Made by a program: the position numbers and the translations under genes. A model generated the notes under the pieces. It worked only from the letters and a program-made list of their open reading frames with translations, had not been told where the DNA came from and searched no databases. A DNA stretch of 64,000 nucleotides from a virus: IMG/VR virus record IMGVR_UViG_3300020578_000040, positions 1 to 64,000 of that record; one strand, given 5' to 3'. How positions within the stretch are numbered: position 1 is the stretch's first letter; every line of letters begins with the position of its first letter. This document shows, piece by piece, positions 9,610 through 26,572 of the stretch.

Positions 9610-9824
9610 AGCCCCGCTTTTTGTTTTCCGCTGGGATGGCTGTTGGGCCTCGATGATTTCCCACCATCATGGATTCTAGCCCCGCTCCCTCGATGAAAGC
9701 AATTCGACTGCCGGGGCTGCGAAGCGACACGCCACCACGGGGCTTGCGGCCGGCGAACCGCGCGTATCGCCCACACGCCGGCAGGATCGGCGCGTATCCC
9801 CGTTCACCCCGGATTCGCGCGTAT
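9610..9824 (+). repeat. regulatory module 1 (AGCCCCGC boxes + 3x GCGCGTAT)
   Basis: A boxes 9610, 9678, inverted 9711, 9737; B boxes 9760, 9790, 9817. Confidence 0.75.
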
Positions 9825-9859
9825 CTGGAGCCTCCCCCGCCCCCGACAGGCTCGCCCGC

Positions 9860-10035
9860 CCCCTGGGGGGTGCTGGGGGTGCTGGGGGCGTTACCCGCCC
9901 CCTGGGGGCGTTCTAGGGGGCGTTCTGGGAGGTCTGGGGCGCCCCTCTATGGGGGGGCGTTCTGGGGGGCGTTCTGGGGGGTCTGGGGGTGCTGGGGCGT
10001 TTCGGGGGTCTGAGCAGGGGAAACGCTGGGGGCAG
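9860..10035 (+). repeat. G-tract repeat (CTGGGGG units), G-quadruplex-prone
   Basis: About 10 runs of 4 or more G on the + strand at the strand-switch point. Confidence 0.7.
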
Positions 10036-10564: not shown

Positions 10565-10635
10565 CCGCCTCGATCCCCCCTCACATCGAGGGGGGACAGG
10601 CACATCCCTGGTTACGCGCTGAGATCGAGGTCGAG

Positions 10636-10890
10636 AGCCCCGCACATAAAGGAAGGCAGGAAGCCCCGCGCTCACTCGACCAAGCGGGGCTGCGGCTCAC
10701 CGCGCGTATGCCGGCGCGTCCGCGTGTCGCGCGTATGCGTGAGTCACGGCGCGTATCGTGGCAGGGCAGGAACGGCGCGTATCTCGCCCCCTCTCCCCAC
10801 CCTCCCCATTCTATGGCGGCGACCCTCTCGCCGTCCACCGGACACCCTGCTAGGAAGGTCACGGTGAGCATAAGTCCTGCTAGATGGCAC
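10636..10890 (+). repeat. regulatory module 2
   Basis: A boxes 10636, 10662, inverted 10684; B boxes 10702, 10729, 10749, 10775. Confidence 0.8.
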
Positions 10891-10997
10891 ATTCTGAGCA
10901 TGATTTGACTCGTCCCCTTGGTGCTGATAGGTTCAGGGTTGTCGGAGCAACCGAGCAACGACACGGGACACACTCCCGAGACCACAGGAGGACGGAC

Positions 10998-11126
10998 ATG
11001 GGACCGGACTACTACGACGACGACTACGAGGGGAACCCCGATTACGAGGGTTACCTGCTCGACGGGGAGGCGTTCATCATCGCACTCCTCGGAGAGGACG
11101 GGTGGGACACCGACCCCGAGGAGTGA
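10998..11126 (+). CDS. 42-aa acidic peptide (paralog of 10193..10303)
   Basis: PDYEGY...EAFII.LLGEDGWD.DPE shared; RBS AGGAGG. Confidence 0.75.
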   Translation: MGPDYYDDDYEGNPDYEGYLLDGEAFIIALLGEDGWDTDPEE

Positions 11127-11220
11127 GCGGTCGGGGTGGGGGCGCAAGCCCCCGCCCCACCCCCTCGGGGAACTGTGCCACACCCTCATGACAGACTGAC
11201 CTCAACAGAAAGGAGCCACC

Positions 11221-11403
11221 ATGTGGCAGGAAGCAAGATGCAAGGGCAAGACCGAACTGTTCTTCGCCCCCCACGGGGAGCGCGAGCAGGCACGGAACGA
11301 GCGAGTGAGCAAGGCTCTCGCGCTCTGCGGAGTCTGCCCCGTCCGTCAGCAGTGTGCCGACGCGAAGGGCGACAACGAGGGAATCTGGGGTGGGGTCGCA
11401 TGA
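11221..11403 (+). CDS. whiB: short WhiB-like Fe-S protein
   Basis: Four Cys (C...CxxC...C) and GIWGG turn; lacks C-terminal helix. Confidence 0.8.
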   Translation: MWQEARCKGKTELFFAPHGEREQARNERVSKALALCGVCPVRQQCADAKGDNEGIWGGVA

Positions 11404-11456
11404 CCCCACCTCACCACCCCGGCAAGATCGAACACCCAACCCAGAAAGGAAACCCC

Positions 11457-11747
11457 ATGAAGAGCATCACTGTCAAAGACCGTGAGTACCCGATCGAGGA
11501 GGTCGAGGTCCCGGAAGGAACCCTGCGATTCGTCACCGCCACGGTGCAGTTCGACGACGACGACACGCCCCTCGATGGCGCGATCATCGCCATCGGAACC
11601 GAGTTCGACGAGTTGGTGACCGCAGAGGCGGCATCCGACGAACTGCTCCGGTTCGATTTGTCGATCTTCTTCTACTGCGCCGACGAGGACGAGTTCATCG
11701 ACCTGGCTGGGAACGGAGTCGCCGGCATGGAGTGGCGGATCGTCTGA
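11457..11747 (+). CDS. acidic hypothetical protein
   Basis: RBS AGAAAGGA. Confidence 0.7.
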   Translation: MKSITVKDREYPIEEVEVPEGTLRFVTATVQFDDDDTPLDGAIIAIGTEFDELVTAEAASDELLRFDLSIFFYCADEDEFIDLAGNGVAGMEWRIV

Positions 11748-11831
11748 CCGACTGGACAGGCTCCCCTGCCACTGCTAGAATCAGTGGTGGGGAAGCCGTC
11801 CCCCTACCTACTACCGAAAGAAAGGAACCCG

Positions 11832-11960
11832 ATGAACCGCAAGAAGTGGAACGAGCAAGATCGATTTGCTTTCGCTACCCAGCGTCTGCGAGCATCGACG
11901 ATGCCGAACAAGAAAGCACAGGCTCGCAAGAGTGCCTGTCGAAAGTGGAGGGCAGAATGA
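11832..11960 (+). CDS. 42-aa basic peptide
   Basis: RBS AGAAAGGA after promoter; MNRKKW...RKWRAE. Confidence 0.6.
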   Translation: MNRKKWNEQDRFAFATQRLRASTMPNKKAQARKSACRKWRAE

Positions 11961-12205
11961 ACTACTACCAAATCCGGGCGCTCGTCCGAGTCGTGTTCTG
12001 GGGAGCGGTCCTGTTCCTCGCCGGCACGGGGTGCGCGAAACTGGTCGAGATGGCTAGCCTCACCGCCGACAACCCGTGCGCGGTGAACGTGAACCGTGAC
12101 TTCACATGGACGACAAACGCGCCACTCAACATCGACCTGTGCGATCACCCCGAGGGGATCATGCTGTTCGATGACGGCCACTGGGAATGGGACTACGAGG
12201 GATAG
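11957..12205 (+). CDS. membrane-anchored hypothetical protein
   Basis: ATGA coupling, N-terminal TM. Confidence 0.6.
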   Translation: MNYYQIRALVRVVFWGAVLFLAGTGCAKLVEMASLTADNPCAVNVNRDFTWTTNAPLNIDLCDHPEGIMLFDDGHWEWDYEG

Positions 12206-12231
12206 GAGGCCTCGGCCCAACCAGGGCCGGA

Positions 12232-12520
12232 AGCCCCGCCTCGATCATTGTAACGACACATCGAGGTCGTAAGCCCCGCTCACGCTGGTGACCAGCGGGG
12301 CTCGAGGGCCGGCAGAGAATACGGGGCTCTCGCCCACCGCGCGTATCCTCGCTCGCCGTGAGCGCGCGTATCGCCAGACCGGCGCGTATGTACGGAACCG
12401 GCTGAAACCGCGCGTATCCCACCGGCTCGTCCTGTCCTATCTATGCCCCCCAACCTAGCAGACCGAGCCACGGTAGGCACAAGAGCAGGGGTTTCGGTGC
12501 GTTTGCCCTGCTAGATGGCA
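12232..12520 (+). repeat. regulatory module 3
   Basis: A boxes 12232, 12272, inverted 12295, 12321; B boxes 12339, 12364, 12382, 12410; CACGGTAGGCAC near 12469. Confidence 0.8.
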
Positions 12521-12596
12521 CGATTTGACTCGGCTCCTTAGGGCTGATAGGTTCAGGTTTGTCGGCAACACCGCCGACCGAAGCAAAGGAGCCACC

Positions 12597-12863
12597 ATGC
12601 TGTGGAGGCAGGTACTCACCACCATCCAGTCCGACGACCTGAGCGTCTGCCCGCCCGACCTGCGGGACGAGATTCGTCAGGCCTGTGACGAACTCATGGC
12701 CGTGAACGTGGGCGAACGCACCACCAGCGTCGGACTCACGACCCGTCAGGTGTTCGACCTCGCCCGTCGGTTCGCCACCTCGCCCGACCTCCGTGAGGAG
12801 TCGCTCATCTGGAAGCGGCACATCATCCGGCACTACTGCTGGGTCTACCGCCGACCGATTTGA
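12597..12863 (+). CDS. hypothetical protein
   Basis: RBS AAAGGAG; stop codon lies in the next -35 box. Confidence 0.7.
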   Translation: MLWRQVLTTIQSDDLSVCPPDLRDEIRQACDELMAVNVGERTTSVGLTTRQVFDLARRFATSPDLREESLIWKRHIIRHYCWVYRRPI

Positions 12864-12934
12864 CAGTCCCCTCTACCCCTGATAGGTTCAGGGGTGGAGG
12901 GAACACCACCCACCACCAACCCCGAAAGGAAGCC

Positions 12935-13147
12935 ATGCCCACCATGCCCATGCCCACCCTGTCCCCCGAGGCCGACGCTCGGCTCGTCATGCCCCGAGCG
13001 TACCTCGCTCAGGCTCGTTCCTACTGTGCCGAGGTGTACGCCGACGCTGACTCCACGCTCACCGAGAAGTGGGAGGCCTCAGCCCTGCTCGCCACGGCGG
13101 AGAGCAACTTCCGCACCGCCCTCACTCGGGAGTTGGTGGGGCGATAA
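12935..13147 (+). CDS. hypothetical protein
   Basis: RBS GAAAGGA. Confidence 0.65.
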   Translation: MPTMPMPTLSPEADARLVMPRAYLAQARSYCAEVYADADSTLTEKWEASALLATAESNFRTALTRELVGR

Positions 13148-13196
13148 GCCCCACCCACCCCGAACCCATCTCACCAACCCAGAAAGAGAGAAACCC

Positions 13197-13556
13197 ATGA
13201 CCACACTCACCCAGTCAGTCATCGACTACCTGAACGCCCGCAAGGCCTGCGAGGAAGCGGAGCAGGCGAAAGCCCGAGCCGAAGCCATGCTCCAGCAGGC
13301 CTACGCCAAAGCCGGCGTGGACTTCGCAGTCGTGGACGGCACGAAGGTCGCCATCGTCAGGGGCGAGCGTCCTAAGTACGACCCGACCCGACTGGCGGAA
13401 CTCGTCACCAGCGAGGTGTTCGCCAGCGTCACGAAGCAGGAAGTGGACGGCACGAAGTGGAAGGCGGCTCTGACCCTCGGGAACATCGCCCCCGAGGTGG
13501 CGGAAGCCGTGACCACGCTGACCACCTACCAGCAGGTGCGAGTCAGCAAGGTCTGA
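13197..13556 (+). CDS. coiled-coil protein, Gam/Gp157-like (paralog of 21896..22285)
   Basis: N-terminal helix plus beta region, KQxVD, QVRV shared with paralog. Confidence 0.6.
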   Translation: MTTLTQSVIDYLNARKACEEAEQAKARAEAMLQQAYAKAGVDFAVVDGTKVAIVRGERPKYDPTRLAELVTSEVFASVTKQEVDGTKWKAALTLGNIAPEVAEAVTTLTTYQQVRVSKV

Positions 13557-13665
13557 CCGAGGGACGGGGGGCGAAAGCCCCCCACCCTCCCCCGATTTGA
13601 CAGTCTCCCTTACCCCTGATAGATTCAGAGGTGAGGGGAAACCCCAACAGCAGAAAAAGGAAACC

Positions 13666-14100
13666 ATGACCACCATCACCCAGATCGCGAGCACGATCGA
13701 CGAACTTGTCCACCGAGAGTTGGGCGACAACCAGTTCGACATGTACAGTCGCCTGTATGTCACCGACCCCGATGGGGCTTGGATGATCGGACAGTCGCAC
13801 GACCCGTACGACATGTTCGACGGCGACACCGCCGTCACGCGCCCCCGTGGGGCGACCGCCGTGGGCTTCGTGTGTACGGGCTGGGCGGCTCCGATCACGG
13901 ACACGCCCACGGACACGCCCCCGAGCCAGAGTCCTGATCGTATCCGAGTGCGAATCACCGTCGCCTACAACGGCTCCGAGTGGACGACCGTAATGCGTCG
14001 CGAGGGCGAGAACACGCCGGACATCATGGAGGAAGCCGGAGCAGGCCCGCTTGCCGACGCAATCGAGTTCTGGTGGGCAGAGGCCGAGGTCGCCTTCTGA
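13666..14100 (+). CDS. hypothetical protein
   Basis: Promoter plus RBS. Confidence 0.7.
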   Translation: MTTITQIASTIDELVHRELGDNQFDMYSRLYVTDPDGAWMIGQSHDPYDMFDGDTAVTRPRGATAVGFVCTGWAAPITDTPTDTPPSQSPDRIRVRITVAYNGSEWTTVMRREGENTPDIMEEAGAGPLADAIEFWWAEAEVAF

Positions 14101-14170
14101 CCCACTCCGAGGCTGGGGGGCGCAAGCCCCCTAGCCACCCCAACATCAACTATCACCCCGAGAGGAACAC

Positions 14171-14377
14171 ATGAACATCACCATCACGACCACCACCGAG
14201 ACCCTTCAGAACATCGAGACCCTGCTCTGGGACTACGAGCGAGCGCTCGATGATCACCTGTACCGAATCTTCCCCGAGGCCTCGACCCGTCAGGCTCTGA
14301 ACGACATCCACACTCTGCGGGCCGACCTGAACCGAATGATCGGTCAGGCCGAGCGTCAGATTCTCGCCAAGCAGTGA
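14171..14377 (+). CDS. hypothetical protein
   Basis: RBS GAGAGGA. Confidence 0.65.
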   Translation: MNITITTTTETLQNIETLLWDYERALDDHLYRIFPEASTRQALNDIHTLRADLNRMIGQAERQILAKQ

Positions 14378-14393
14378 TCGAGGTGTAGTCCCC

Positions 14394-14603
14394 TCAGGCT
14401 TGAGCGTCCCACTTACCGAGTGGGCATCGGGCCGAGGGGACACGCACCTTGAGTGGCATCACGCACCCGCACTCACGGCACTGGCTCAGCGCATTGAGTC
14501 GATCGCAGTCCATACAGATCGCGAGCCGGCTCTCCTTGACCTCGTGTGATACGCGCACCCAGGGCAGTCGAAGAATGTCGAGTGGTGTCGCGTCGTCGTC
14601 CAT
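14394..14603 (-). CDS. small Zn-finger protein (CxxC...CxxCGC...CPLGKW)
   Basis: Common phage Cys-rich family; antisense to array. Confidence 0.75.
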   Translation of the reverse strand: MDDDATPLDILRLPWVRVSHEVKESRLAICMDCDRLNALSQCRECGCVMPLKVRVPSARCPLGKWDAQA

Positions 14604-14606
14604 GGA

Positions 14607-14820
14607 AGCCCCGCTTACTACAATAGCAGCAGAGCCCCGCGTGCATTCGTTCTGCCGGGGCTGCAGCGCGCGCGATCGCGCGTATCTCAGGATCGGCGCG
14701 TATCCCTGGGGCCGACGAGATTGGCGCGTATCTCCACCCTGCCGGCCCCATCTATGAAGGGCCGGCCCGGCCCCCTATCTATGGCCGGCCCCTATCTATA
14801 GGGCCACGGTTGGCACATGG
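14607..14820 (+). repeat. regulatory module 4
   Basis: A boxes 14607, 14633, inverted 14655; B boxes 14678, 14696, 14724; CCCC(T)ATCTAT x3; CACGGTTGGCAC. Confidence 0.8.
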
Positions 14821-14893
14821 CCGGTTTGACACCGACCCTTGGGACTGATAGGTTCAGGTTTGTCGGCAACCCCGCCGACTCAGAAAGGAAACC

Positions 14894-15037
14894 ATGACCA
14901 CCGACACCTGCGAACACTGCCAGGAAGAGCAAGGCCACTACAGAAAGTCGTTCGACACTGTGCTCTGCGACGAGTGCTTATGCGCTTGGGCAGACGGAGT
15001 GCGCGAGCGCGAGCGCGACCTCGACTGGGGAGACTGA
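14894..15037 (+). CDS. 47-aa CxxC...CxxC peptide
   Basis: RBS AGAAAGGA. Confidence 0.65.
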   Translation: MTTDTCEHCQEEQGHYRKSFDTVLCDECLCAWADGVRERERDLDWGD

Positions 15038-15042
15038 CAACC

Positions 15043-15207
15043 ATGCACACCATCAACCTCCGCGCTGGCGACAACTACCTCGTCCTGACGGACGACGAGA
15101 GCAACTTCGTGGACTTGTTCTACAACTACGAGCAGGCCCAAGAAGTTGCCAACCTGATCCTGGAGGAAGGCTCCAGCAAAGTCCAGGTCATCAGGATCAC
15201 CCTCTGA
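15043..15207 (+). CDS. hypothetical protein
   Basis: RBS GGGGAG. Confidence 0.6.
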   Translation: MHTINLRAGDNYLVLTDDESNFVDLFYNYEQAQEVANLILEEGSSKVQVIRITL

Positions 15208-15259
15208 CCAATCCCGGCCGGGGGCGCAAGCCCCCGGCCACCAAACAGAAAGAGAAACA

Positions 15260-15544
15260 ATGGGACACCAATCAGCAACCGAGATGGCAGGAATGCCGAT
15301 CAGCCTCGAACAGCAACTCACGTGGCACCTCACGTCGAACCACTACCCGCCGGTTCCGCTCAGCATGATCGAGCCGTGCATGAAGGCCATCGACGCGATC
15401 GTCATGGACGAGCCGAACACGCTCATCGAGTTGCCGGACGGAATCACCTACCGTGACTCGACTCACGCGCCGGCGTGGGCGATCGCGGAGGGTCACCACC
15501 TCCAAGCGTTCATCGACTCCTGCTTCGACGAGTACGAAGACTGA
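15260..15544 (+). CDS. conserved phage hypothetical protein (HLTSNHYPPVP)
   Basis: RBS; recognisable motif. Confidence 0.7.
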   Translation: MGHQSATEMAGMPISLEQQLTWHLTSNHYPPVPLSMIEPCMKAIDAIVMDEPNTLIELPDGITYRDSTHAPAWAIAEGHHLQAFIDSCFDEYED

Positions 15545-15616
15545 GTTGACAACCTCCCCTGCTACTGTAGATTCAGTAGCAGGGGGCCCAACCCCATCAA
15601 ACAGAAAGAAGGAATC

Positions 15617-15862
15617 ATGTCCGACCACATCCAGCGCATCCAGCCCATCCTGCCCAACGGCGCGATGTTCTCCATCGTGGAGTCGTTCGGCCGCAAAGAG
15701 GTGGCTGTTCTTCAGAACGACGAGTTCGTCTCGCCCACCGAGTGGGCCGACATCGACACCGGCGACGACATCGTACGCCTGTCCGACGTGGCCGACGAGT
15801 TGGCCGTGTACCTCATGAAGGCCATCTCGTGGGGCCTCAACAACACGGAGGTGGCGCGATGA
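15617..15862 (+). CDS. hypothetical protein
   Basis: Promoter plus RBS. Confidence 0.65.
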   Translation: MSDHIQRIQPILPNGAMFSIVESFGRKEVAVLQNDEFVSPTEWADIDTGDDIVRLSDVADELAVYLMKAISWGLNNTEVAR

Positions 15863-16089
15863 GCCTGGGCGCGCTCGCACAGGACATCCTCGACGACAAG
15901 TGGGTTCTCTGCTCGATCACGGAGGCTCTAGAGCACGCGCTCGATGAGCACCTGATCGACAGGACCTACCTCGTCTACGACGAAGCCGGCGACAGCAGGC
16001 CCGCCACGGACATCGAGTTTCTCATGGCGGTTCAGGAGATACTCGTCGCGCTCAATGCCGGCGCCATCGGCGACTCAGCCGTAGCATGA
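15859..16089 (+). CDS. hypothetical protein
   Basis: ATGA coupling, RBS GGAGG. Confidence 0.65.
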   Translation: MSLGALAQDILDDKWVLCSITEALEHALDEHLIDRTYLVYDEAGDSRPATDIEFLMAVQEILVALNAGAIGDSAVA

Positions 16090-16144
16090 GGTGAAGGGGG
16101 TCAGGGCAACCTGGCCCCACTCGCCCGCCCACCATCTGGGCTAG

Positions 16145-16380
16145 AGCCCCGTCCCCATACGAGGGTCGAGAGCCCCGCGCACATCGCTAGATGCGGGGCT
16201 GCCGAAGCAAATAACTAGCGGGGCTGCCGGCCAAAACCGCGCGTATCAAAACCGCGCGTATCAAAACCGCGCGTATCCCAGGATGGCGCGTATGCCGGCA
16301 CAGCGCGTATGCCCTCGCGCGTGCGCACGGTGTGCGTATGTGCGTGCGTGCGCCCGTTCCTCTCTCCCTCCACCACCTCG
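16145..16380 (+). repeat. regulatory module 5
   Basis: A boxes 16145, 16171, inverted 16193, 16218; B boxes 16239, 16254, 16269 (perfect 15-bp tandem), 16286, 16303. Confidence 0.85.
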
Positions 16381-16462
16381 GCCCGATTTGACAGCGACCC
16401 CTGGGGCTGATAGGTTCAGGGTTGTCGGGGAGAACGGCTCCCCAACAAGAAAGGAGCGCACA

Positions 16463-16783
16463 ATGCGCTGGAACGCAAGCACTCAGGACGTGGTGGACCA
16501 CCTCGTCTTCTCAGGAGCGGACACGTACGACTGGTATCGCCAGTTGGATGTGGACGGCGACGATGCCATCACCATCGGGATGGACGATCCGAACGACGAG
16601 GACGGTGCCATCTTCACGACGATGTCGGCTACCGCCATCCGCCGGCTGGCGGAGCAGTTCGTCAAGGAGGAGAAGCCCGGCTACCGGGTTGTCGCCCGGG
16701 CGATCCAGGACGACGACTTCGATTCGGACGCCGCCGACGTGGTCCTTCAGTGGGCTGTGTTCGGGACGCTCGTCTACGGCTGA
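16463..16783 (+). CDS. conserved phage hypothetical protein (D.DAADVVLQ..VFG.LVYG)
   Basis: C-terminal motif; RBS AGAAAGGAG. Confidence 0.75.
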   Translation: MRWNASTQDVVDHLVFSGADTYDWYRQLDVDGDDAITIGMDDPNDEDGAIFTTMSATAIRRLAEQFVKEEKPGYRVVARAIQDDDFDSDAADVVLQWAVFGTLVYG

Positions 16784-16856
16784 TTTGACTCAGCCCCCTG
16801 CCACTGATAGATTCAGTGGTGGGGGGCAACCCCACCAACAACAGAAAGGAAACCCA

Positions 16857-17216
16857 ATGAACATCCTGTTCATCCACGACGACTCCGAGCGAGGACTCGT
16901 CAATGTCCGCAACCTTGCGCCCGAGCACATCGACATCAACTCGATGGTCGGCGGTTGGTTCGACTGCGTACGGTCCCGTGACGGTGCGATCGTCGGGTAC
17001 GTCAATGACACCGGCTTGACCGATGGCATGGCGCCCAACCTCGTCGCATCGCTCCTGTTCGCTCGTCCGCTCTACGGTCCCTGCGTGGTCGTGGGCGGTC
17101 TCAACGAAGCCGGCGAGTACGACGGCGACAACCACGACGTGCCGGAGAGCGTCATCCGGGGAGTGCTCCCGCTGAACGACATCTTCCGGATGCGGCCCGA
17201 GTCCACCACGGTCTGA
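16857..17216 (+). CDS. DUF3846-like protein
   Basis: VGGWFD...YVNDTG...PN.VAS...GPCVVVG. Confidence 0.7.
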   Translation: MNILFIHDDSERGLVNVRNLAPEHIDINSMVGGWFDCVRSRDGAIVGYVNDTGLTDGMAPNLVASLLFARPLYGPCVVVGGLNEAGEYDGDNHDVPESVIRGVLPLNDIFRMRPESTTV

Positions 17217-17284
17217 TTTGACCGCTCCCCCTGCGCCTGATAGATTCAGGTGTGGGGGGAGAACAACCCCACAGAGAGGAACCC

Positions 17285-17464
17285 ATGACGAAGTTTTACA
17301 TGGTCGAATACATCGTCCGTACCTACGTCCACGCCGACGACTCAGATCAGGCGCGCGAACTGTCGGCACGAATGCTCGACGAGAAAGAAGCACGAGGCGA
17401 ACTCGCCCGCGAGTGTGTCGAACTCGACTGGTTCGAGTTGGACGAAGAAGGAGAGATGATCTGA
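17285..17464 (+). CDS. acidic hypothetical protein
   Basis: Promoter plus RBS. Confidence 0.65.
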   Translation: MTKFYMVEYIVRTYVHADDSDQARELSARMLDEKEARGELARECVELDWFELDEEGEMI

Positions 17465-17467
17465 ACC

Positions 17468-17701
17468 ATGTTCCGTGAACCAATCGAGGAGCCAGAGATG
17501 ACCAAACTCAACCCCCAGGAGCGAGCCCTGCTCATCCTGAACAACGCCAAGCGTGACATCACCAACATCATGGCTCTCCCCATGGAGGACTACGAGGTGA
17601 TCGAACGGCAACTACGTGACTCGATCGCGTGGCTCATGTCGGGAAGCCGGCACAGGCCTCTGATCCGCGTCGCCTTGACAAAGGGCGAAGAGCCCTTCTA
17701 A
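17468..17701 (+). CDS. hypothetical protein
   Basis: Operon packing. Confidence 0.55.
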   Translation: MFREPIEEPEMTKLNPQERALLILNNAKRDITNIMALPMEDYEVIERQLRDSIAWLMSGSRHRPLIRVALTKGEEPF

Positions 17702-17743
17702 CATCAACCAACAGCAACACCCACCTATAGAAAGGAACTACAA

Positions 17744-17953
17744 GTGGAAGCAACAGAAACCAAGAAGAAGATCACCGATACGAACCTCGATGAGTTTAAG
17801 CACCGAATGGGCACCATCGACGTGGAGGGACTGATCGTCTCGATCACCGTGACGGACGCTCGATTCCGCTACGGACACATCGACCTTAAGGTCACGCCCA
17901 TCTCGGGCCGTGGCGAGCGTTGGGTCGAGAGCACCAAGGTGACTCTGATCTAA
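17744..17953 (+). CDS. hypothetical protein
   Basis: RBS AGAAAGGA, GTG start. Confidence 0.65.
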   Translation: MEATETKKKITDTNLDEFKHRMGTIDVEGLIVSITVTDARFRYGHIDLKVTPISGRGERWVESTKVTLI

Positions 17954-18181
17954 TCAGAACAGAGTTAGAGACATGTCAGGGGGGTTGTCTTTCAGATCAA
18001 CACAGGTCTGACAGGCAACCCCGCCGATCATCTTCAGCATCTTCACATCGCCGGCATTGAGTTTGCCCTTCTTCGTGATGCGGGTATAGCCCTCGATGCG
18101 CAGCCACACGTCCTTCTCAATCCGAAGAATGTCGCGGCCACACAGGTCGCACTGATACAGCGGGGGAAGATGTCCGTCCAT
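17954..18181 (-). CDS. small CxxC...CxxC protein, antisense to array
   Basis: CDLC...CQTC. Confidence 0.6.
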   Translation of the reverse strand: MDGHLPPLYQCDLCGRDILRIEKDVWLRIEGYTRITKKGKLNAGDVKMLKMIGGVACQTCVDLKDNPPDMSLTLF

Positions 18182-18197
18182 CGCTCAATCGTATCGA

Positions 18198-18455
18198 AGC
18201 CCCGCACTCAACTCAAGACGGAAGCCCCGCTTTCCCAGGGGAGGAGTCTGTCTAGCGGGGCTGCGAATCGCTCGATCCTTACGGGGCTGCGGCGCGTAAC
18301 CGAGGCCCTCGACGCCGGCCACCAACCGCGCGTATCCGACACCCGAGCACCGCGCGTATCCTGAACCGCGCGTATGCGCACGCACGGTAGGCACATGGGC
18401 GCGTATGCGCTCGCGCGCGCGTGTGCGTGTTCCTCTCTCCCCCCTCCACGGAGCG
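18198..18455 (+). repeat. regulatory module 6
   Basis: A boxes 18198, 18223, inverted 18255, 18281; B boxes 18328, 18352, 18368, 18399; CACGGTAGGCAC. Confidence 0.85.
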
Positions 18456-18619
18456 TCGATTTGACACGCTCACTACGGTCTGATAGGTTCAGTGTTGTCG
18501 GGGAAACCGACACCCCCGAATCCCCTCCACGGAGCGTCGATTTGACACGGCACACTGTGGGTGATAGGTTCGGGGTTGTCGGGGAAACCTGACGCTACCT
18601 ACTACAGAAAGGAATCATC

Positions 18620-19141
18620 ATGATTTGTCGTTCATGCGACACGCCCGCAGTGGGCAAGAGTGCCTACTGCTCCACTCACCGCGCCGAGGCACGGGCCGCG
18701 TGGAAGGCCAAGATCAGCGACGAGGCCGAGGCCCGCAAGGCCCGCAAGGCCGGTCACGCCGAACTCTGGTCGCGCGCCGTTCAGGCCGGTATCAAGGCGT
18801 GGCACGAAGCCATCCCCACCCCCATGCTCGTGGGCACGGCGAAGGGTCTGTTCGACGACTCGTTCGACGAGACCAAACCCGTGTACCACGTGAGCGAGGG
18901 CGTGTGCGGTTTCGCGTCGCTCGTCGTGAAGCCCGCGAACTCGTCGTTCGCTCACTGGCTCAAGGCCAACGTGCGCACGAGCAAGCACTACGGCGGTGGC
19001 CTCTCCGTGTGGTCGTCCGTCATCGTGCCGGAGGACGCGCGCAGTCAGTCCTACGAGCGCAAGGACGCGGCCATGCGCGCCGTGGCCGAGGTGCTCCGCG
19101 AGGCCGGTATCAAGGCCTCGTGCTGGAGCAGGCTCGACTGA
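18620..19141 (+). CDS. conserved phage hypothetical protein (GVCGFA...QSYERK..A...SRLD)
   Basis: Recognisable family motif; tandem promoters upstream. Confidence 0.75.
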   Translation: MICRSCDTPAVGKSAYCSTHRAEARAAWKAKISDEAEARKARKAGHAELWSRAVQAGIKAWHEAIPTPMLVGTAKGLFDDSFDETKPVYHVSEGVCGFASLVVKPANSSFAHWLKANVRTSKHYGGGLSVWSSVIVPEDARSQSYERKDAAMRAVAEVLREAGIKASCWSRLD

Positions 19142-19248
19142 GCGAGGGCGGGGGGCGCAAGCCCCCCACTCCCCCTCGATTTGACAGACCCACCTACCGC
19201 TGATAGATTCAGTGGTGGGAGCAATACCCCAACCAAGAAAGAGGAACA

Positions 19249-19614
19249 ATGACCATCACCAACATCACGGGAACCGTGCTCATCGGACACGTGGGCGTGG
19301 ACTCCGGCCAACTCATGATCTGCGACCCGTGCTACATCAAGGCCGACGACTGGGCCGACCAGCCGTACGCCCCCGCAAACGCCGTGGACGGCAAGTACCC
19401 GTTCACCTACAACGGCGCGTGTGGCGCGACGCTCAATGAGGACAGTGCTGGGCAGTTGGGCACGTTCGATACCGGCATCGCGTTCGCATCGGGCTACGGC
19501 GACGGCACCTACCCCGTGTACGCCACGTACGTCGATGGGCGCATCGCCAGTGTCGAGATCGTGCTCATCAGCGAGGACGAGGACGACGAGGACGAGGAGG
19601 AGTACCTCCTCTGA
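19249..19614 (+). CDS. DUF4241-like protein
   Basis: GVDSGQLMICDP...SGYGDGTYPVY. Confidence 0.7.
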   Translation: MTITNITGTVLIGHVGVDSGQLMICDPCYIKADDWADQPYAPANAVDGKYPFTYNGACGATLNEDSAGQLGTFDTGIAFASGYGDGTYPVYATYVDGRIASVEIVLISEDEDDEDEEEYLL

Positions 19615-19688
19615 TTTGACAGCGACCCCTGCCCCTGATAGATTCAGGGGTGGGGGAAGCAATACCCATCAGCAACAGAAAGGAAATC

Positions 19689-19964
19689 ATGACCACCATC
19701 ACCACCATCAAGCAACGGAACATCGACGCCGGCCACTACTTCTTCGACACAAAGGCCATGCGGTTCTTCAACAGTCGCGTGAGTCGCACCACCTACGGCG
19801 ACTTCTTCGTGACCAGCGAGAAAGGCCCCGACAAGGTGCGCCGGTACACGGTGCGCTACAGCGACCCCGCCACCGGCCACATCAACACGGTCGGAGAGTT
19901 CCAGCAGTTCGACACGCTGTGGGGCGCGCTCGCGGAAGCGCGACGCCTCTACCTCGCGATCTGA
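19689..19964 (+). CDS. conserved phage hypothetical protein (GHYFFD..AMRFFNSR)
   Basis: Promoter plus RBS. Confidence 0.75.
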   Translation: MTTITTIKQRNIDAGHYFFDTKAMRFFNSRVSRTTYGDFFVTSEKGPDKVRRYTVRYSDPATGHINTVGEFQQFDTLWGALAEARRLYLAI

Positions 19965-20293
19965 TCGTGCGCTCGTTGTCGGCTCCGTGGCTCTGGTCGT
20001 TCGTCGTCGTGTACGAAGGACGCCCAGAGTCGAGGTTCCGGTTTGGCTCCCCCTGCCGGCTTGTGCGTTCCGTTGATCTTGCCGTGCATGTGTTACTGCC
20101 CGAACTTCTGACACCGCATCTTCCGATCCTGGCGTGCTACCTCCGTTCGACTTCCCCTAGATGGGGTCGAGCGTGGCGTCGCTGGTAGACCCAAATGGCC
20201 AGTTGCTGATTTGACAACCTGTCCCTGCCACCACTAGGATTAGTGGTGGTGGGGGCAACCCAACCAAATACCTACTACAGAAAGGAATCCCCA

Positions 20294-20758
20294 ATGGGAC
20301 TCGATCAGTACCTACACGCAAAGAAATACACCTCGCCCGCCGAATGGCGACCCGAGGCCGAGCGCAAGGCTTACGCCGACATCATGAAGGCGGTGCAAGT
20401 CAGCGAGTTCATGGATGACCACTTGCCCTCCGCAACCGTCGAAGTGATGGTGGCCTACTGGCGCAAGCAGAACGCCATCCACAAGTGGTTCGTGGACAAC
20501 CATCAGGGTGGCGAGGACGACTGCCGTGAGTCCTACGTCGGACGTCAGGGGCTGGAAAGCCTGCGCGACGTCTGTCGCGAGGTGCTGGCCGACCACTCGA
20601 AGGCCGACGAACTCCTGCCCACGGAGTCCGGGTTCTTCTTCGGTGGCACGGAGTACGACAAGTGGTACTTCGATGGGCTGGCCTACACGGTCGAGCGTAT
20701 CGAGAAGTTGCTCACCATGCCCGACGACTGGGACTTCTACTACCAGTCATCGTGGTGA
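20294..20758 (+). CDS. conserved phage protein (MGLDQY...YWRKQNAIHKWF...YQSSW)
   Basis: Recognisable family motif. Confidence 0.8.
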   Translation: MGLDQYLHAKKYTSPAEWRPEAERKAYADIMKAVQVSEFMDDHLPSATVEVMVAYWRKQNAIHKWFVDNHQGGEDDCRESYVGRQGLESLRDVCREVLADHSKADELLPTESGFFFGGTEYDKWYFDGLAYTVERIEKLLTMPDDWDFYYQSSW

Positions 20759-20829
20759 CCCGCTCAGGGGTCGGTCTCTTCGGAGGCCGACCCCACCATC
20801 ATCTACAAACACAGAAACAGGAGAATGAA

Positions 20830-20994
20830 ATGACACTCACCGAATGCGACGTCCAGCGGATCGAAGACCTGCTGAAGGAACTCCCCGCCATGATCGAAGA
20901 GCATGGATACCCGTATGCGCTAGGCGGTGCTGAGTATTGGCTGAAGCGCATCGTCGAATTGTCCGCGCACCAGAAGAAAGGAATTGGGCAATGA
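20830..20994 (+). CDS. hypothetical protein
   Basis: RBS AGGAG. Confidence 0.6.
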   Translation: MTLTECDVQRIEDLLKELPAMIEEHGYPYALGGAEYWLKRIVELSAHQKKGIGQ

Positions 20995-21215
20995 ACAACG
21001 AGGAAGCCAAGTGCAAGGGCAAGGGCAAAATCTTCTTCGCCCCTCACGCAGAGCGACCCCAGGCCCGCGTCCGTCGCGAGGCCATCGCCATCGCCCTCTG
21101 CCTGTCGTGCCCACTCGTCGATGAGTGTCGAGTGGCTGGCGCGAATGAGGAGCACGGCATCTGGGGTGGCACCACCGAGCGCGACCGCGGAATGGTCAAG
21201 GAGCGAGCCCGCTAA
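20991..21215 (+). CDS. whiB: WhiB-like transcription factor
   Basis: Four Cys, HGIWGGTTERDR. Confidence 0.85.
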   Translation: MNNEEAKCKGKGKIFFAPHAERPQARVRREAIAIALCLSCPLVDECRVAGANEEHGIWGGTTERDRGMVKERAR

Positions 21216-21230
21216 ATAGCCAGCCATTAT

Positions 21231-21246
21231 CCGAACAAATGTTCGG
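21231..21246. promoter_or_regulatory. LexA/SOS-box-like palindrome CCGAAC-AAAT-GTTCGG
   Basis: Matches Gram-positive/actinobacterial CGAAC-N4-GTTCG. Confidence 0.5.
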
Positions 21247-21316
21247 GTGTTGCTGGATGACGGCCGGCGTTCTCGGTTAGGGTGTGCTCGACGCACAACC
21301 TCCATGTGTGTCCGAG

Positions 21317-21590
21317 AGCCCCGCCGTTTCTTTCCTCCTTTCTGGACGGCGGGGCTTCTCGTATTCTGGAGCCCCGCACACTGCGCTGCCCTGGAGCCCC
21401 GCTCGCACTCGATCCAGCGGGGCTCGCGCGGCCACGGACCAGCGGGGCTGCGGCGTTCGCGCGTATGTCTTACGCGGCCTCACGATTCGCGCGTATGTAA
21501 TGGGCCGGCAGATTCGCGCGTATGTCTCCCACTTCGCGCGTATGTAGGCCACGGTAGGCACATGACGATCCACGCGCGCGTAATCTTTGT
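21317..21590 (+). repeat. regulatory module 7
   Basis: A boxes 21317/21349(inv), 21370, 21395, inverted 21417, 21442; B boxes 21459, 21489, 21516, 21536; CACGGTAGGCAC. Confidence 0.85.
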
Positions 21591-21895
21591 GGTGTCCCCT
21601 CGATTTGACAGAGGGTGGCAGGGCTGATAGGTTTGGGTTTGTCGGGGCAACTCGACACCAAGCCAACTCGATTTGACCAGCCCTGTATGGTCTGATAGAG
21701 TTCGGTTTGTCGGGGCAACTCGGCAGGCCTGCTATGACGCACTATCTAAGTGACTCGCCCGATTTGACGGTGACTCACCCACCTGATAGATTCAGGTTTG
21801 TCGAGTTCTCCCGACACCTAGCCGATTCGATTTGACAGGCTCACACCTGTCCGATAGATTCGGAAACGCAATACCTACTACCGAAAGGAATACCA

Positions 21896-22285
21896 ATGTC
21901 CCTTACCATCGACCGTGCTATTGCCGATCTCTTGGTTCTCCGTGACAAGGAGAAGGAGATCGAGCAGGCCAAGCGAGACACGGAGGCTCTGCTCGTCGCC
22001 CTGTTCGACGACGCAGGAATCGACCACTACGAGACCACCGACAAGGTGCGTGTCGCCGTGGAGAACCGTCCCCGTCGCTCATTCGACATGGACAGTCTGC
22101 TGGCGAACCTGCCGGCGACCGTCCTCAACATGGTGCTGAAGCAGACCGTCGATTCGTCGGCGTTCGACAGTGCCGTGGAGACCGGCCTCGTCCCGACCCC
22201 CGTGGTCGAGCAGGCCGTCACGATCTCGTATTCCACGCAAGTGCGTGTGTACGGGCAGAAGGGTGTTCGGGGCGACCGCTCCTGA
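21896..22285 (+). CDS. coiled-coil protein, Gam/Gp157-like (paralog of 13197..13556)
   Basis: Four tandem promoters upstream; shared motifs. Confidence 0.65.
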   Translation: MSLTIDRAIADLLVLRDKEKEIEQAKRDTEALLVALFDDAGIDHYETTDKVRVAVENRPRRSFDMDSLLANLPATVLNMVLKQTVDSSAFDSAVETGLVPTPVVEQAVTISYSTQVRVYGQKGVRGDRS

Positions 22286-22430
22286 CACCCCTCACAACCT
22301 GACATTTGGTCATGTCAGGCTCCTTTCCGCATGACCCCTCACCCCGTCGATTTGACAGGGGTGGGGGGAATGTGGGAGACTTCATTCGGAGCCAACCACT
22401 CCACCTACCTACTACCGAAAGGCAAACTCA

Positions 22431-23156
22431 ATGACCACCACCAATACCGCCATGCCTCAGTGCTGGCAAGATGTACACGACTGCCTCGCCTCGGGTGTCG
22501 ATCGCCTCGTGCTGTTCGGCCCTCCGGGGACTGGCAAGACCTTCGCCGGTCTCACGATGGGCGATGTAACCACCGGAGCGTTCCGCGTCGTCTGTAACGA
22601 GGAGATGACCTCGGCCGATGTGACCGGACACTTCCAGCCCACGGGCAACGAGTGGACTTGGAACGAGGGCGCGGTTCTCCGTGCTTGGAAGGGCAACGGC
22701 TCTCACGGCGGTCGCGTCGTGGCAGACGAGATCGACCGTGCGTCGGGCGATGTGTTGTCGCTCCTGCTCGCCATGTTCGACTCGCCGGAGTCGGCCTCTT
22801 GGACGCACCCTGCGACCAAGCAGACCTTCCGTCCCCTCCCCGGATTCAGCGTCATCATGACGACGAACATCGAGGACATGAGGGAACTCCCGACCGCTCT
22901 CAGGGATCGGTTCCCCGTGGCTATTCGTATCAACCGCCCACACCCGAACGCCCTGTTGGCCCTGCCGGAGGACTTGCGTGAGGTGGCCTCAGCCAGCGTG
23001 GACGCAGACGACGAGCGACGGTACTCGATTCGTACCTTCCAGTCATACGCCAAGTTGCGTGGAACGCTGGGTTCGGAGCGAGCCGCGACGCTGGTGTTCG
23101 GCAAGAACGCCAAGTCCATCATGGACGCCATCAAGATCGAGGAGGTCTCCAAGTGA
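22431..23156 (+). CDS. MoxR/CbbQ-type AAA+ ATPase
   Basis: GPPGTGKT, DEIDRA, TTN, ALRDRF. Confidence 0.9.
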   Translation: MTTTNTAMPQCWQDVHDCLASGVDRLVLFGPPGTGKTFAGLTMGDVTTGAFRVVCNEEMTSADVTGHFQPTGNEWTWNEGAVLRAWKGNGSHGGRVVADEIDRASGDVLSLLLAMFDSPESASWTHPATKQTFRPLPGFSVIMTTNIEDMRELPTALRDRFPVAIRINRPHPNALLALPEDLREVASASVDADDERRYSIRTFQSYAKLRGTLGSERAATLVFGKNAKSIMDAIKIEEVSK

Positions 23157-24622
23157 CCACCAAGATCAACGCTGGTGTGGTCACCCCCAAGGGGGTGGCC
23201 ATGCCGGAGTGGCTCACTCGTGAGGACTCCCCCCAAGGCCCGTGGACTGTCAAGGAAGGCAACGCCACTCGTGGCGAGGCGTTCACCAACCGTATCGAGC
23301 GTCTCATGACGGTTCCCTACGGCGACGACGACCTCTCCCGTGCGGTTCGCGCCCACGAGATGATGCACGCCAAGGTGTCCCCGGAGTCGATGGCTTCGTT
23401 CGACGGGTTCTCGATTTCGCCGGAGGCCATTCGGGCTTCGGAGGAATTTCGTGTGAACACGCTCTGCTCGCTCGCCGGCTTCGACATGGACAATCTGCGT
23501 GACGGGTCGGAGTCACAGACTGGCAAGCGACTGGCCGAGAACAAGGACTGGAACAACACCGTCCTGTTCATCGCGGCTACCGCCGGAACCAAGGCCTGCA
23601 AGGATGTGCTTCGTGGTATGCGTACCGTGAGTCCCGAAATGGCTGACAAGGCCAAGCGTGTCGAGAAGGCTCTGCTCGATTCGTGGAAGTCCGAGATCAA
23701 GCGTTTCGGCCCTGTGCGTGACTCTCGTGCGGTCACCTACGCTCGTCGTGAGATGGCTAGCACCACGCCCGTGGTCTACAAGGCGGACGGCACGCCGTCT
23801 CGTCCCGTCAATCACGACACCGTTCTTGCCGAGGGCGAGCGCATCCTCCCTGAGGGGGCGAAGTTCACGCTCAGGTTTGCTTCGCTCGTGGACGCTCTAC
23901 TCAAATACGACGACTCCGTGGACGGACACGAAGGCGACGGCGAGCCGAGCGACGAGGAACTCGACGCTGTGACCAAGACGGCCGGTGGCAAGACTTGGGC
24001 GCGACTCATCGTCGATCGTTCGGTTCCGCTGACTCGTCGAGTCAAGGGCAACCTCGGTCGTCGGCGTATGGCCACCAACATCGGTGTCTCGCCTCGTCGA
24101 ATGGAGCGACTGCTGACCGACCCCGACAAGCGTGTGTTCGACCGCACGATCAAGGGGCAGGGCGGTGTCGTTCTCATCGACCAGTCCGGCTCGATGAGGC
24201 TGAACGACGACGATGTGATGGCTCTCGTGAACGAGGCTCCCGGCTGTGTGGTCGTGGGCTACTCGCACCGACCCAACTCGTCGGGTGTCCCGAATGTGTG
24301 GATTCTCGCCGACCGTGGCAAGGTCTGTAGCGCGGTTCGCTCCGGCAACGGTGGCAACGGCGTGGACTACCCTGCCTTGGTGTTCGCCAACAAACTTCGC
24401 AAGAAGGGCGAGCCGTTGGTGTGGGTCTGCGACGGTCATGTCACGGTGTCCGATGACGGGTTCGCACCTGCTCCGCTTCGCAAGCAGGTGGCCGGCTTCG
24501 TTCGCAAGAATCAGGTTCACATGGTTCCGACCGTGGGTGAGGCTGTGACTGCGTTGCGACGCGCCAAGTCGGGCGTTCGTCTCACGACCAAGATCGTCGG
24601 TTCGGAACTCTCCGCGTCCTGA
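23153..24622 (+). CDS. HExxH metallopeptidase-like + VWA domain protein
   Basis: AHEMMH; MIDAS DQSGSM; WVCDG; coupled to AAA gene. Confidence 0.8.
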   Translation: MTTKINAGVVTPKGVAMPEWLTREDSPQGPWTVKEGNATRGEAFTNRIERLMTVPYGDDDLSRAVRAHEMMHAKVSPESMASFDGFSISPEAIRASEEFRVNTLCSLAGFDMDNLRDGSESQTGKRLAENKDWNNTVLFIAATAGTKACKDVLRGMRTVSPEMADKAKRVEKALLDSWKSEIKRFGPVRDSRAVTYARREMASTTPVVYKADGTPSRPVNHDTVLAEGERILPEGAKFTLRFASLVDALLKYDDSVDGHEGDGEPSDEELDAVTKTAGGKTWARLIVDRSVPLTRRVKGNLGRRRMATNIGVSPRRMERLLTDPDKRVFDRTIKGQGGVVLIDQSGSMRLNDDDVMALVNEAPGCVVVGYSHRPNSSGVPNVWILADRGKVCSAVRSGNGGNGVDYPALVFANKLRKKGEPLVWVCDGHVTVSDDGFAPAPLRKQVAGFVRKNQVHMVPTVGEAVTALRRAKSGVRLTTKIVGSELSAS

Positions 24623-24760
24623 CCGCGAGAGGGGTGGGGCAGGGTTTGTTCTCCTTGTCCCCACCCCACCCCTCGATTTGACCCAGCCTCACCGCTGGTG
24701 TAGGATCGAGTTTGTGGGGAAACCCACACCTATCAAGTACCTACCTACAAAGGAGTCATC

Positions 24761-25537
24761 ATGCCGAACTGGGCATACAACTCGATGACCGTCCGCTCGA
24801 CTTCCGAGTCCAAGCAGACTGCCATCCACGACCTTCAGGAGTTCCTGGAGTTCATCAAGGTCACCGACCCCGAGACTGGGGCTATCAGTTACGACCTGAC
24901 CAAAGCACACCCTATGCCCGAGGCACTCATGGGCACTCGCTCACCTGTCCCCTACTCGCCTGAACCGCACCCCAATTGGGTCGAGATGTTGGCGGAGGGA
25001 CAGATGACGCAGGAGCGTTTCGACGAACTCTGTGCCGAGAACATCAAGTTCTACGAGGCTGGGCAGAAGGCATACGCCGAGACCGGCTACACCGACTGGT
25101 ACGACTGGGCGAACAAGGAGTGGGGAACCAAGTGGGCACCTCGCTTCGAGCACAACGACCCCGAGTTGGACGAGGAGCACGAACAGGTCTCGATGTACTA
25201 CGAGACTGCGTGGTCGCCGGCAGATGGGCTGGTTTCCAAGATGAGCGAACGCTTCCCGAACTTGGTGTTCGAGGTGTCCGTGACAGAGGAAGCAAACCTG
25301 TATGTCGGTGCGTCGCACTTCCACAACGGCGTGGCGACGATGTTCTACACCTCGTTCGATGACAAGGATTTGCCCGACCGCTACACGAAGCGGTACGCCG
25401 AGATTGTCGAACACGAGGCGAAAGACGACATCGACTGGGATTCCTACTTCGAGAAGATGAGTGACCTCCAGTCCGATGTTCTCGAATACTGCGAGAATCA
25501 GATTGCGCTCATGGCCTCATTTGAGGTGGGGTCATGA
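24761..25537 (+). CDS. DUF1281/YubB ferredoxin-like protein
   Basis: MPNW.YN...WYDW...WGTKW...ETAWSP. Confidence 0.8.
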   Translation: MPNWAYNSMTVRSTSESKQTAIHDLQEFLEFIKVTDPETGAISYDLTKAHPMPEALMGTRSPVPYSPEPHPNWVEMLAEGQMTQERFDELCAENIKFYEAGQKAYAETGYTDWYDWANKEWGTKWAPRFEHNDPELDEEHEQVSMYYETAWSPADGLVSKMSERFPNLVFEVSVTEEANLYVGASHFHNGVATMFYTSFDDKDLPDRYTKRYAEIVEHEAKDDIDWDSYFEKMSDLQSDVLEYCENQIALMASFEVGS

Positions 25538-25899: not shown

Positions 25900-26018
25900 C
25901 AATCCGAGTGTTCGACCCGAACCCGACATACGACGAATGGTGCGAGGCGAACGGCCTCGACCCTGACAACGACGAGACCTACAACGCTTACTGCGAATGG
26001 AGAAGCAACAACCGATGA
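25896..26018 (+). CDS. 40-aa acidic peptide
   Basis: ATGA-coupled at both ends; RBS GAGGAG. Confidence 0.6.
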   Translation: MTIRVFDPNPTYDEWCEANGLDPDNDETYNAYCEWRSNNR

Positions 26019-26517: not shown

Positions 26518-26535
26518 TCACTGGTGGTAGGTGAC

Positions 26536-26570
26536 GCAGAGGGGCGGGCCGAAAGGCTCGCCCCTTTGTG
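26536..26570. terminator. bidirectional hairpin between convergent genes
   Basis: AGGGGCGGGCC-GAAA-GGCTCGCCCCT. Confidence 0.65.
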
Positions 26571-26572
26571 CT

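Follow-up and report, generated by a model that had tools for sequence, protein, structure and literature searches.

Why should the same short box stand at the head of one group of small early genes after another? The question is raised by the first 64,000 nucleotides (hereafter the window) of the 81,366-bp IMG/VR virus record IMGVR_UViG_3300020578_000040, the completeness of which was estimated at about 54%. The initial annotation of the window had described boxes of the sequence AGCCCCGC (here called A boxes) as helically phased, and had proposed the cooperative, geometry-dependent binding of an oligomeric protein along one face of the DNA, at sites similar in size to recombinase cores with accessory arms. 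The reading favoured here, to which we give about an even chance, is that AGCCCCG(C) is a short word read by a conserved factor of the phage family or of its hosts, and that it serves as a boundary or switch of the early gene block. Genes for a tail sheath and for tail fibres mark the phage as a myovirus, and its sequence was present in lake-water metagenomes (public runs). Three WhiB-family genes (11227-11400 (+), 21000-21191 (+) and 35253-35444 (-)) lie in its early/replication region, and the host is therefore taken to be an actinobacterium. We know of nothing reported on gene control in these lake phages, and one seven-letter word, limited to the early block and purged from the rest of the genome, offers a concrete and testable way into the question in phages that are abundant in lakes.

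Enrichment and avoidance of the word AGCCCCG

In the window, AGCCCCGC was found in 25 exact copies against 2.91 expected (maximum of 7 in 100 shuffles), and all boxes of the initial annotation were recovered when one mismatch was allowed. The identity of the boxes had been drawn too tightly: six of those listed match at only seven of eight bases (16145, AGCCCCGT; 9711 and 14655, CCGGGGCT; 9737, 12321 and 18281, ACGGGGCT), and all six retain the core AGCCCCG/CGGGGCT. This 7-mer is the presumptive functional unit; a recount of cases in which at least one arm is the full 8-mer (47 of 56) was not clearly above chance. Across the 81-kb record AGCCCCG occurs 32 times, always between 9.5 and 34.3 kb, and ranks first among 105 words of the same composition (mean of 6.5 copies). 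The other 56.6 kb contain no copy at all, where words of the same composition have a mean of 8.5 copies and only 1% of them are absent; the third-order Markov expectation for this part is 4.9, and zero copies were obtained in none of 100 simulations.

Relatives were taken to be the 74 IMG/VR loci retrieved with the 489-amino-acid (aa) protein encoded at 23153-24622 (identity 31-59%; some contigs up to 158 kb). All copies of AGCCCCG in the complete genomes G001 (156 kb) and G002 (158 kb), 39 of 39 and 38 of 38, fall within 95-131 kb and 10.6-47 kb, respectively, as do 27 of 30 copies within 140.7-155.1 kb of G003, while G004 carries 60 copies against 5 of the reversed control word. AGCCCCG was the top-ranked 7-mer of its composition in 38 of the 74 related loci, and the A word was found in most of them, even at 46% GC, which means that it is conserved across relatives sharing only 31-59% identity in the marker protein. 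From the counts in the record, the Markov expectation and the relatives, the early block is thus enriched in the word, which the remainder of the genome avoids. Both strands are used (179 single copies on the plus strand and 153 on the minus strand). The palindromic pattern taken alone is unspecific: an exact scan of IMG/VR for AGCCCCGC-N12-26-GCGGGGCT returned more than 116 contigs, mostly unrelated, with a single hairpin and none of the B arrays described below.

How the word is presented differs between lineages. In the window and in G001, G002, L125, L130, L131 and L137 it forms the arms of palindromes; G001 and G002 hold 12 perfect AGCCCCG-N14-20-CGGGGCT palindromes each, about 1 kb apart in one stretch of 13-17 kb, and none elsewhere. 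In G004 the word occupies the apical loop of perfect hairpins, the stems of which (10-17 bp) are all different; loops in the two orientations relative to transcription are about equally many (21 versus 19), and ATTTGTCGG lies 3' of most of the hairpins. In L132, L159 and L176 it is solitary, with 22-24 copies per locus, no flanking inverted repeat and rank 1 in each. The letters being constant, the structural context changing and both strands being used, the word is therefore most simply read by sequence on DNA.

Some further features of these elements were observed. The sequence TTTGTCGG was also seen 3' of the G004 hairpins. In the palindromes of G001 (L196) and G002 (L197), the segment between the arms apparently occurs in both orientations relative to fixed flanks, with a CTnCGCTCGG-like loop start on either strand and arm-adjacent bases that are C/C or G/G. 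These loop orientations suggest loop inversions between the short inverted arms.

Anatomy of the control modules

The A boxes of the window, the solitary one at 31643 apart, belong to seven full and two degenerate modules, which are intergenic and lie among small plus-strand genes. The order within a module is A boxes, three to five GCGCGTAT boxes (B boxes), one or more CTATCTATG-like boxes, one CACGGTnGGCACA box, one to four promoters, a ribosome-binding site and small genes. Boxes had initially been placed at 10636-21449; this range stands for the modules within it, but boxes also lie outside, at 9610-9744 and as single copies at 27044, 31643 and 34112/34138. The modules and the other features referred to below are as follows.

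9610-9744: module 1 A boxes at 9610 (+), 9678 (+), 9711 (-, CCGGGGCT) and 9737 (-, ACGGGGCT)
9760-9824 (+): module 1 B array, three copies of GCGCGTAT
10636-10691: module 2 A boxes at 10636 (+), 10662 (+) and 10684 (-); distances 26 and 22
10702-10782 (+): module 2 B array, four copies; promoter TTGACT-N17-TAGGTT at 10905
12232-12328: module 3 A boxes at 12232 (+), 12272 (+), 12295 (-) and 12321 (-, ACGGGGCT); distances 40, 23 and 26
12339-12417 (+): module 3 B array, four copies; promoter at 12525
14607-14662: module 4 A boxes at 14607 (+), 14633 (+) and 14655 (-, CCGGGGCT); distances 26 and 22
14678-14731 (+): module 4 B array, three copies; promoter at 14826
16145-16225: module 5 A boxes at 16145 (+, AGCCCCGT), 16171 (+), 16193 (-) and 16218 (-); distances 26, 22 and 25
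16239-16310 (+): module 5 B array, five copies, three of them a perfect 15-bp tandem repeat; promoter at 16388
18198-18288: module 6 A boxes at 18198 (+), 18223 (+), 18255 (-) and 18281 (-, ACGGGGCT); distances 25, 32 and 26
18328-18406 (+): module 6 B array, four copies; promoters at 18461 and 18542
21317-21356 (+): terminator-like hairpin on the same word, with an 11-bp stem (AGCCCCGCCGT/ACGGCGGGGCT), a pyrimidine-rich loop containing CCTCCTTTCT and a T-rich tail
21370-21449: module 7 A boxes at 21370 (+), 21395 (+), 21417 (-) and 21442 (-); distances 25, 22 and 25
21459-21543 (+): module 7 B array, four copies; four tandem promoters at 21605, 21673, 21764 and 21832
22431-24622: AAA_5 ATPase (241 aa), then the conserved 489-aa protein (23153-24622; phrog_33218, no Pfam domain)
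26839-27213 (-): HA-HTH protein (124 aa), HA domain and sigma-70 region-4-like helix-turn-helix (HTH)
27044-27242 (+): degenerate module 8, one A box (27044), four B boxes, promoter at 27272
31643-31650 (+): solitary A box
34112-34228 (+): degenerate module 9, A box at 34112, AGCCCCGG at 34138, B boxes at 34153 and 34221

The B boxes are a second motif, unmentioned in the initial annotation, and form an array directly after each A cluster, at a gap of 17-23 bp (47 bp in module 6). For the motif GCGCGTAT(C/G), 1.7 copies are expected in the window and 39 were counted, 33 being on the plus strand; arrays of three to five copies begin at the positions listed and, in module 8, at 27115, the whole spanning 9760-34228. 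Modules 2 and 4 are without a second inverted A copy. Module 1 occupies a divergent gap, with the minus-strand block (to 9456) on one side and the first of the plus-strand early genes on the other; codon-position GC places minus-strand genes up to 9456 and small plus-strand genes from about 9.9 kb onward. Module 8 and the HA-HTH gene on the minus strand overlap, in the 5' part of the gene.

Promoters of the form TTGACn-N17-TAG(G/A)(T/A)T number 21 on the plus strand (10905-28573), of which 12 lie within 400 bp downstream of a module; a scan with the promoter consensus gave 18 against 4.0 expected. Those belonging to modules read TTGACn-N17-TAGGTT, and nearly all of the promoters behind a module have the leader CAGGTTTGTCGG. 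The nine promoters of the same type that lie between modules, inside gene groups, have the leader CAGtGGTGGGGG and no A or B boxes. Between B array and promoter each module has a single CACGGTnGGCACA(a/t)G box (10860-10880, 12470-12490, 14795-14815, 16335-16350, 18385-18400 and 21550-21565), the counterpart of which in L121 is ACGGTGnGCATATGT. The CTATCTATG-like boxes sit between the B array and the CACGGTnGGCACA box; an 18-bp insertion in one lake run adds a copy at 14789. The B box itself was not conserved: its counterparts were GTGCGCGT(G/A) in L121, GGGGGGCTTCCGATAAC in L131 and L137, GTAGATAA- and GGCAGGTAA-type boxes in G001 and G002, and DnaA boxes in L150, where at least six (TTATCCACA / TGTGGATAA) lie at 790-960, directly after the A palindrome and at the position of the B array. 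Since relatives have a different box in the same place, the B box looks like the site of a lineage-specific factor.

Two other repeats were seen near modules. Just after module 1 (9830-10010) there is a G-rich tandem repeat of roughly six copies, with a unit of about GGGGGCGTTCTG and GGGGGTGCT variants, which could form G-quadruplexes. A polyC/polyG hairpin (CCCCCCTC...GAGGGGGG) of the PeSL (promoter-early stem-loop) kind is located at 10570-10598, directly 3' of the stop codon upstream of module 2. The AAA_5 ATPase and the 489-aa protein, a pair that we take to resemble CobS/CobT-type phage gene pairs, are present in all 74 relatives. Among cultured phages (INPHARED) no match was obtained by megablast of 9.5-22 kb or tblastn of the 489-aa marker protein, no Rfam family was matched at the gathering threshold, and no tRNA or tmRNA was reported by ARAGORN. 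No RNA run was listed among the public runs carrying the phage sequence, and a literature search for the two 8-mers returned unrelated eukaryotic papers only.

Spacing, pairing and the proposed reading of the word

The spacings reported initially were reproduced to the base: 26, 26, 26, 25 and 25 bp for the same-orientation pairs 10636/10662, 14607/14633, 16145/16171, 18198/18223 and 21370/21395, and 26, 25, 26, 25 and 26 bp for the inverted copies 12295/12321, 16193/16218, 18255/18281, 21417/21442 and 9711/9737, respectively. Facing inner boxes are separated by 14, 15, 14, 14 and 14 bp at 10662, 12272, 14633, 16171 and 21395, and by 24, 24 and 25 bp at 18223, 21317 and 9678, also as described. 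The direct spacing of 25-26 bp was found in 10 of 12 same-orientation neighbours, but not for 12232 to 12272 (40 bp) or 9610 to 9678 (68 bp). At 10.5 bp per helical turn, 25-26 bp corresponds to 2.38-2.48 turns; direct neighbours are therefore on roughly opposite faces, which contradicts the proposed single face, only inverted pairs being near whole turns. The centre-to-centre distance within inner inverted pairs is either 22-23 bp (2.1-2.2 turns) or 32-33 bp (3.05-3.14 turns); within outer pairs it is 72, 73, 83 and 127 bp for modules 7, 5, 6 and 1 (6.9, 7.0, 7.9 and 12.1 turns, respectively) and 89 bp (8.5 turns) for module 3. Inverted pairs near whole turns in four of five full modules, a small sample, would fit two nested dimers on opposite faces.

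Conservation of the spacing in homologous modules was mixed. The orthologue of module 6 in L121, the nearest relative (2941/2966/2998), has the same distances of 25 and 32, and the spacers between these boxes have kept their lengths (17 and 24) with a fully diverged sequence; the distances being shared despite diverged spacers, a constraint on length is argued. The layouts of module 7 and its L121 orthologue differ, and across the relatives the lengths of the spacer between 7-mers are distributed evenly within 16-19 nt, a minor mode lying at 24-26. Only three relatives have direct repeats at about 25 bp (24-25). Phasing as a general rule is thus not borne out in the family.

From the enrichment and purging of the word, its conservation, its constrained spacing and the module anatomy, we infer protein binding, its stoichiometry and an effect on transcription, which would run as follows. 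AGCCCCG(C), on duplex DNA or as an extruded hairpin, would be read by a factor conserved across lake myoviruses of Actinobacteria or their hosts, and would define the early-gene block. The nested inverted A repeats would form the upstream edge of each composite early control module, with host SigA-type promoters further down. The inner inverted pair, about two or about three turns apart, would take a dimer, and the outer pair, 25-26 bp off on each side, a second dimer on the other face; both dimers together may assemble into a complex serving as boundary or switch, by which early transcription units are insulated or shut off.

Several observations weigh against this proposal. A rigid dimer on one face would not tolerate spacers spread evenly over 16-19 nt, and the direct spacing of 25-26 bp, at half-integral turns, is specific to this lineage. 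Hairpin formation may matter in its own right, as G004 carries the word in hairpin loops and the stems in G001 and G002 extend past the word with different flanking bases. Arm variants can be compensated (AGTCCCG/CGGGACT in L173), as a structural constraint predicts, and the elements are found at operon boundaries, where PeSL terminator stem-loops sit. The reader of the A word, moreover, is a candidate only. That candidate is the HA-HTH protein, the product of a family core gene (61 of 79 loci), the recognition helix of which (LSRQRVHQI) is invariant across lineages differing in word presentation and B boxes; the invariant helix argues for a conserved target, which could be the A word or equally the conserved -35 element. 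Its AlphaFold model was confident (pLDDT 85), and Foldseek against PDB gave no match at E <= 0.001 and local HTH matches only. Autoregulation found no support: the word lies within 400 bp of the HA-HTH gene start in only 18 of 61 loci, and several of these copies are apparently coding-dictated. A canonical terminator (26535-26570; 16-bp stem, GAAA loop and T-rich tail) ends the plus-strand gene group before the convergent HA-HTH gene.

Sequence-specific recognition was ranked first and a purely structural boundary hairpin second. Such a hairpin, in early transcripts or single-stranded DNA, would attenuate or terminate read-through or protect 3' ends, the word being kept by concerted evolution; on balance we think this unlikely. 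It would suit the intergenic location, in which a co-directional gene group has ended and the next promoters lie downstream, and PeSL stem-loops have been shown to terminate (PMC2839356). The 7-bp GC stem alone amounts to about -11 kcal/mol and the elements average about -16 kcal/mol; besides the extended stems of G001 and G002 and the compensated variants, U.G hybrids in L173 and L170 pair on the plus strand only. The hairpin at 21317-21356 resembles a true terminator, and is the only A palindrome with spacer pairing above that of shuffled spacers (z = -4.2); its loop is conserved in L121 (7157-7196). The CCTCCTTTCT of this loop resembles the 3' end of 16S rRNA (anti-Shine-Dalgarno). Taken together, A spacers paired no better than shuffled ones (mean z 0.03, p 0.32). 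Intrinsic terminators share with the elements a GC-rich inverted repeat placed where gene groups end and, in this one copy, a T-rich tail; they have short loops of 3-8 nt, whereas the loops here are 14-15 or 24-25 nt between 8-mers (16-19 nt between 7-mers in relatives), those of 14-19 nt being unstructured, and the stem is invariant. No U-tract was found 3' of the stem, the sequence after the arms being GC-rich and only 21317-21356 having a T-rich tail, and a terminator scan reported no A palindrome, though it found the canonical tetraloop terminator at 26535. Structure alone would also permit the word to drift, which it does not; the loop-adjacent base varies independently of its partner, a pairable combination being avoided (9 of 56 in relatives against about 23 expected from column frequencies). 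Folding gave no overall advantage to the plus strand (29 hairpins stabler on plus and 39 on minus, p 0.30; G001 and G002 favour antisense). Exact A copies without a pairing partner exist (the outer plus-strand boxes of modules 2 and 4, and 27044, 31643 and 34112), as do the solitary and loop-borne copies of relatives, and a hairpin does not account for purging outside the early block. Finally, module 1 and the first G001 element are located in divergent gaps (in G001 by a crude open reading frame call from GC3), where no co-directional transcript arrives from the adjacent divergent genes.

The word might instead be the target of an enzyme acting on DNA (a nickase, a modification enzyme or a translocase-loading site) in the part of the genome that is early or enters first. 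Sequence-specific nicks are known from phage T5, and a strand-independent word that is dense in one block (about 1 per 0.3-1 kb) and absent elsewhere would be in keeping with this, but no nuclease or methylase was linked to the word, assembled contigs run through the sites, and the ordered position of the boxes in promoter modules and their fixed spacing point to regulation; this makes an enzyme target improbable. Equally low are the chances that the boxes are functionless, conserved parts of cassettes spread or homogenised by homologous recombination in PeSL-type shuffling. Gene content between conserved modules does differ between the window and L121, G001 and G002 are mosaic with many homology breaks near cassettes, and some loops are alike between modules (for example, 2 and 7). 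Homogenisation has nevertheless touched the 7-mer and not the spacers or loops, and purging outside the block, solitary copies and conservation at 31-37% marker-protein identity would go unexplained.

The initial suggestion of an 8-14-8 recombination core with accessory arms, the site of a recombinase of the tyrosine or serine type, is very improbable. In its favour are nested inverted and direct repeats at fixed spacing and a likeness between the HTH of the HA-HTH protein and the C-terminal HTH of resolvases, which is local and weak (E 0.23), the two sharing only a generic three-helix HTH. Crossover regions of tyrosine recombinases are a fixed 6-8 bp, far shorter than the variable spacers here (14-15 or 24-25 bp, 16-19 nt in relatives, 14-27 bp overall). 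That no recombinase is visible in the window was correct, and extends to the rest of the 81-kb record: neither Phage_integrase (PF00589) nor Resolvase (PF00239) was detected in this record (about 54% complete) or in five relatives at least 91% complete, in searches the controls of which worked (14 of 14 genomes for PF00589). A genome with 7-12 such sites facing both ways would be scrambled by recombination between them; synteny with L121 is nevertheless kept at modules 6 and 7. Contigs of four lake-water runs over 8.5-23.5 kb, which would miss rare rearrangements, showed no credible joint in A cores; the joints listed in them had short sides of 20-45 nt at 85% likeness, none ended in an A core, and they were treated as spurious, the contig breaks in these runs falling in repeat arrays. 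Nor do the modules resemble integron attC sites, as there is no tyrosine recombinase and the gene groups carry their own promoters. What survives of the geometry-dependent protein site proposed initially is the behaviour of a recognition word and a constrained geometry, both supported indirectly; the single face, the general phasing and the recombinase analogy do not.

A wider form of sequence-specific recognition is conceivable, although we lean against it: AGCCCCG may be an "early-block identity" word, read in duplex, stem or loop by a conserved factor (for example, HA-HTH or a host protein) that switches the early region or controls its entry into the cell, with late regions kept free of the word as a stray copy would be harmful. 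If this is true, the abundant freshwater actinophages would possess a layer of genome-wide cis-regulation that has not been described before. The distribution of the word points to a reader protein.

Comparison with known systems

Stoperators of Cluster A mycobacteriophages and C1 operators of phage P1 are asymmetric sites of 13-17 bp; stoperators are oriented with transcription and lie genome-wide in temperate phages. In both, as possibly here, many copies of a short word are distributed across transcription units and read by one DNA-binding protein. The word described here differs in being 7-8 bp long, on both strands, restricted to the early block and often palindromic, and no repressor or integrase was found. 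The p4 sites of phage phi29 consist of inverted half-sites with a non-conserved spacer of about 15 bp, where cooperative binding switches early promoters off. Their half-site layout is similar, as is the presence of several sites along the early/late control region; they differ in sequence and phage group, belong to a single control region as opposed to 7-12 modules, and binding is proven for p4, whereas it is presumed here.

Among known systems, the PeSL cassettes of T4-type phages (Arbiol et al. 2010, PMC2839356; Comeau et al. 2014, PMC4122927) come closest in architecture; they are composite promoter/stem-loop units that recur through a plastic region of small early genes, and terminator activity and mini-circle formation have been demonstrated for them (PMC2839356, PMC4122927). 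In both systems a composite motif is repeated in the intergenic gaps of a block whose early genes are small and variable, and it joins a strong promoter of the host sigma-70 type to a GC-rich inverted repeat; the gene content between copies differs among relatives. PeSLs are about 100 bp long, and their stem-loop lies in or beside the promoter, that is, between -35 and -10 or overlapping them, in the AT-rich stretch upstream, or immediately ahead of the start site (PMC2839356); in the modules of the window, about 150-250 bp of sequence with box arrays separate the palindrome from the first -35 downstream of it. The stems of PeSLs are generic polyG/polyC, whereas here an exact 7-mer is kept family-wide, purged outside the block and sometimes found without a stem. 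The PeSL idea of terminator/promoter cassettes that also drive gene shuffling would thereby be extended from T4-type coliphages to an unrelated family of Actinobacteria phages, with the addition of a sequence-specific component that PeSLs do not have.

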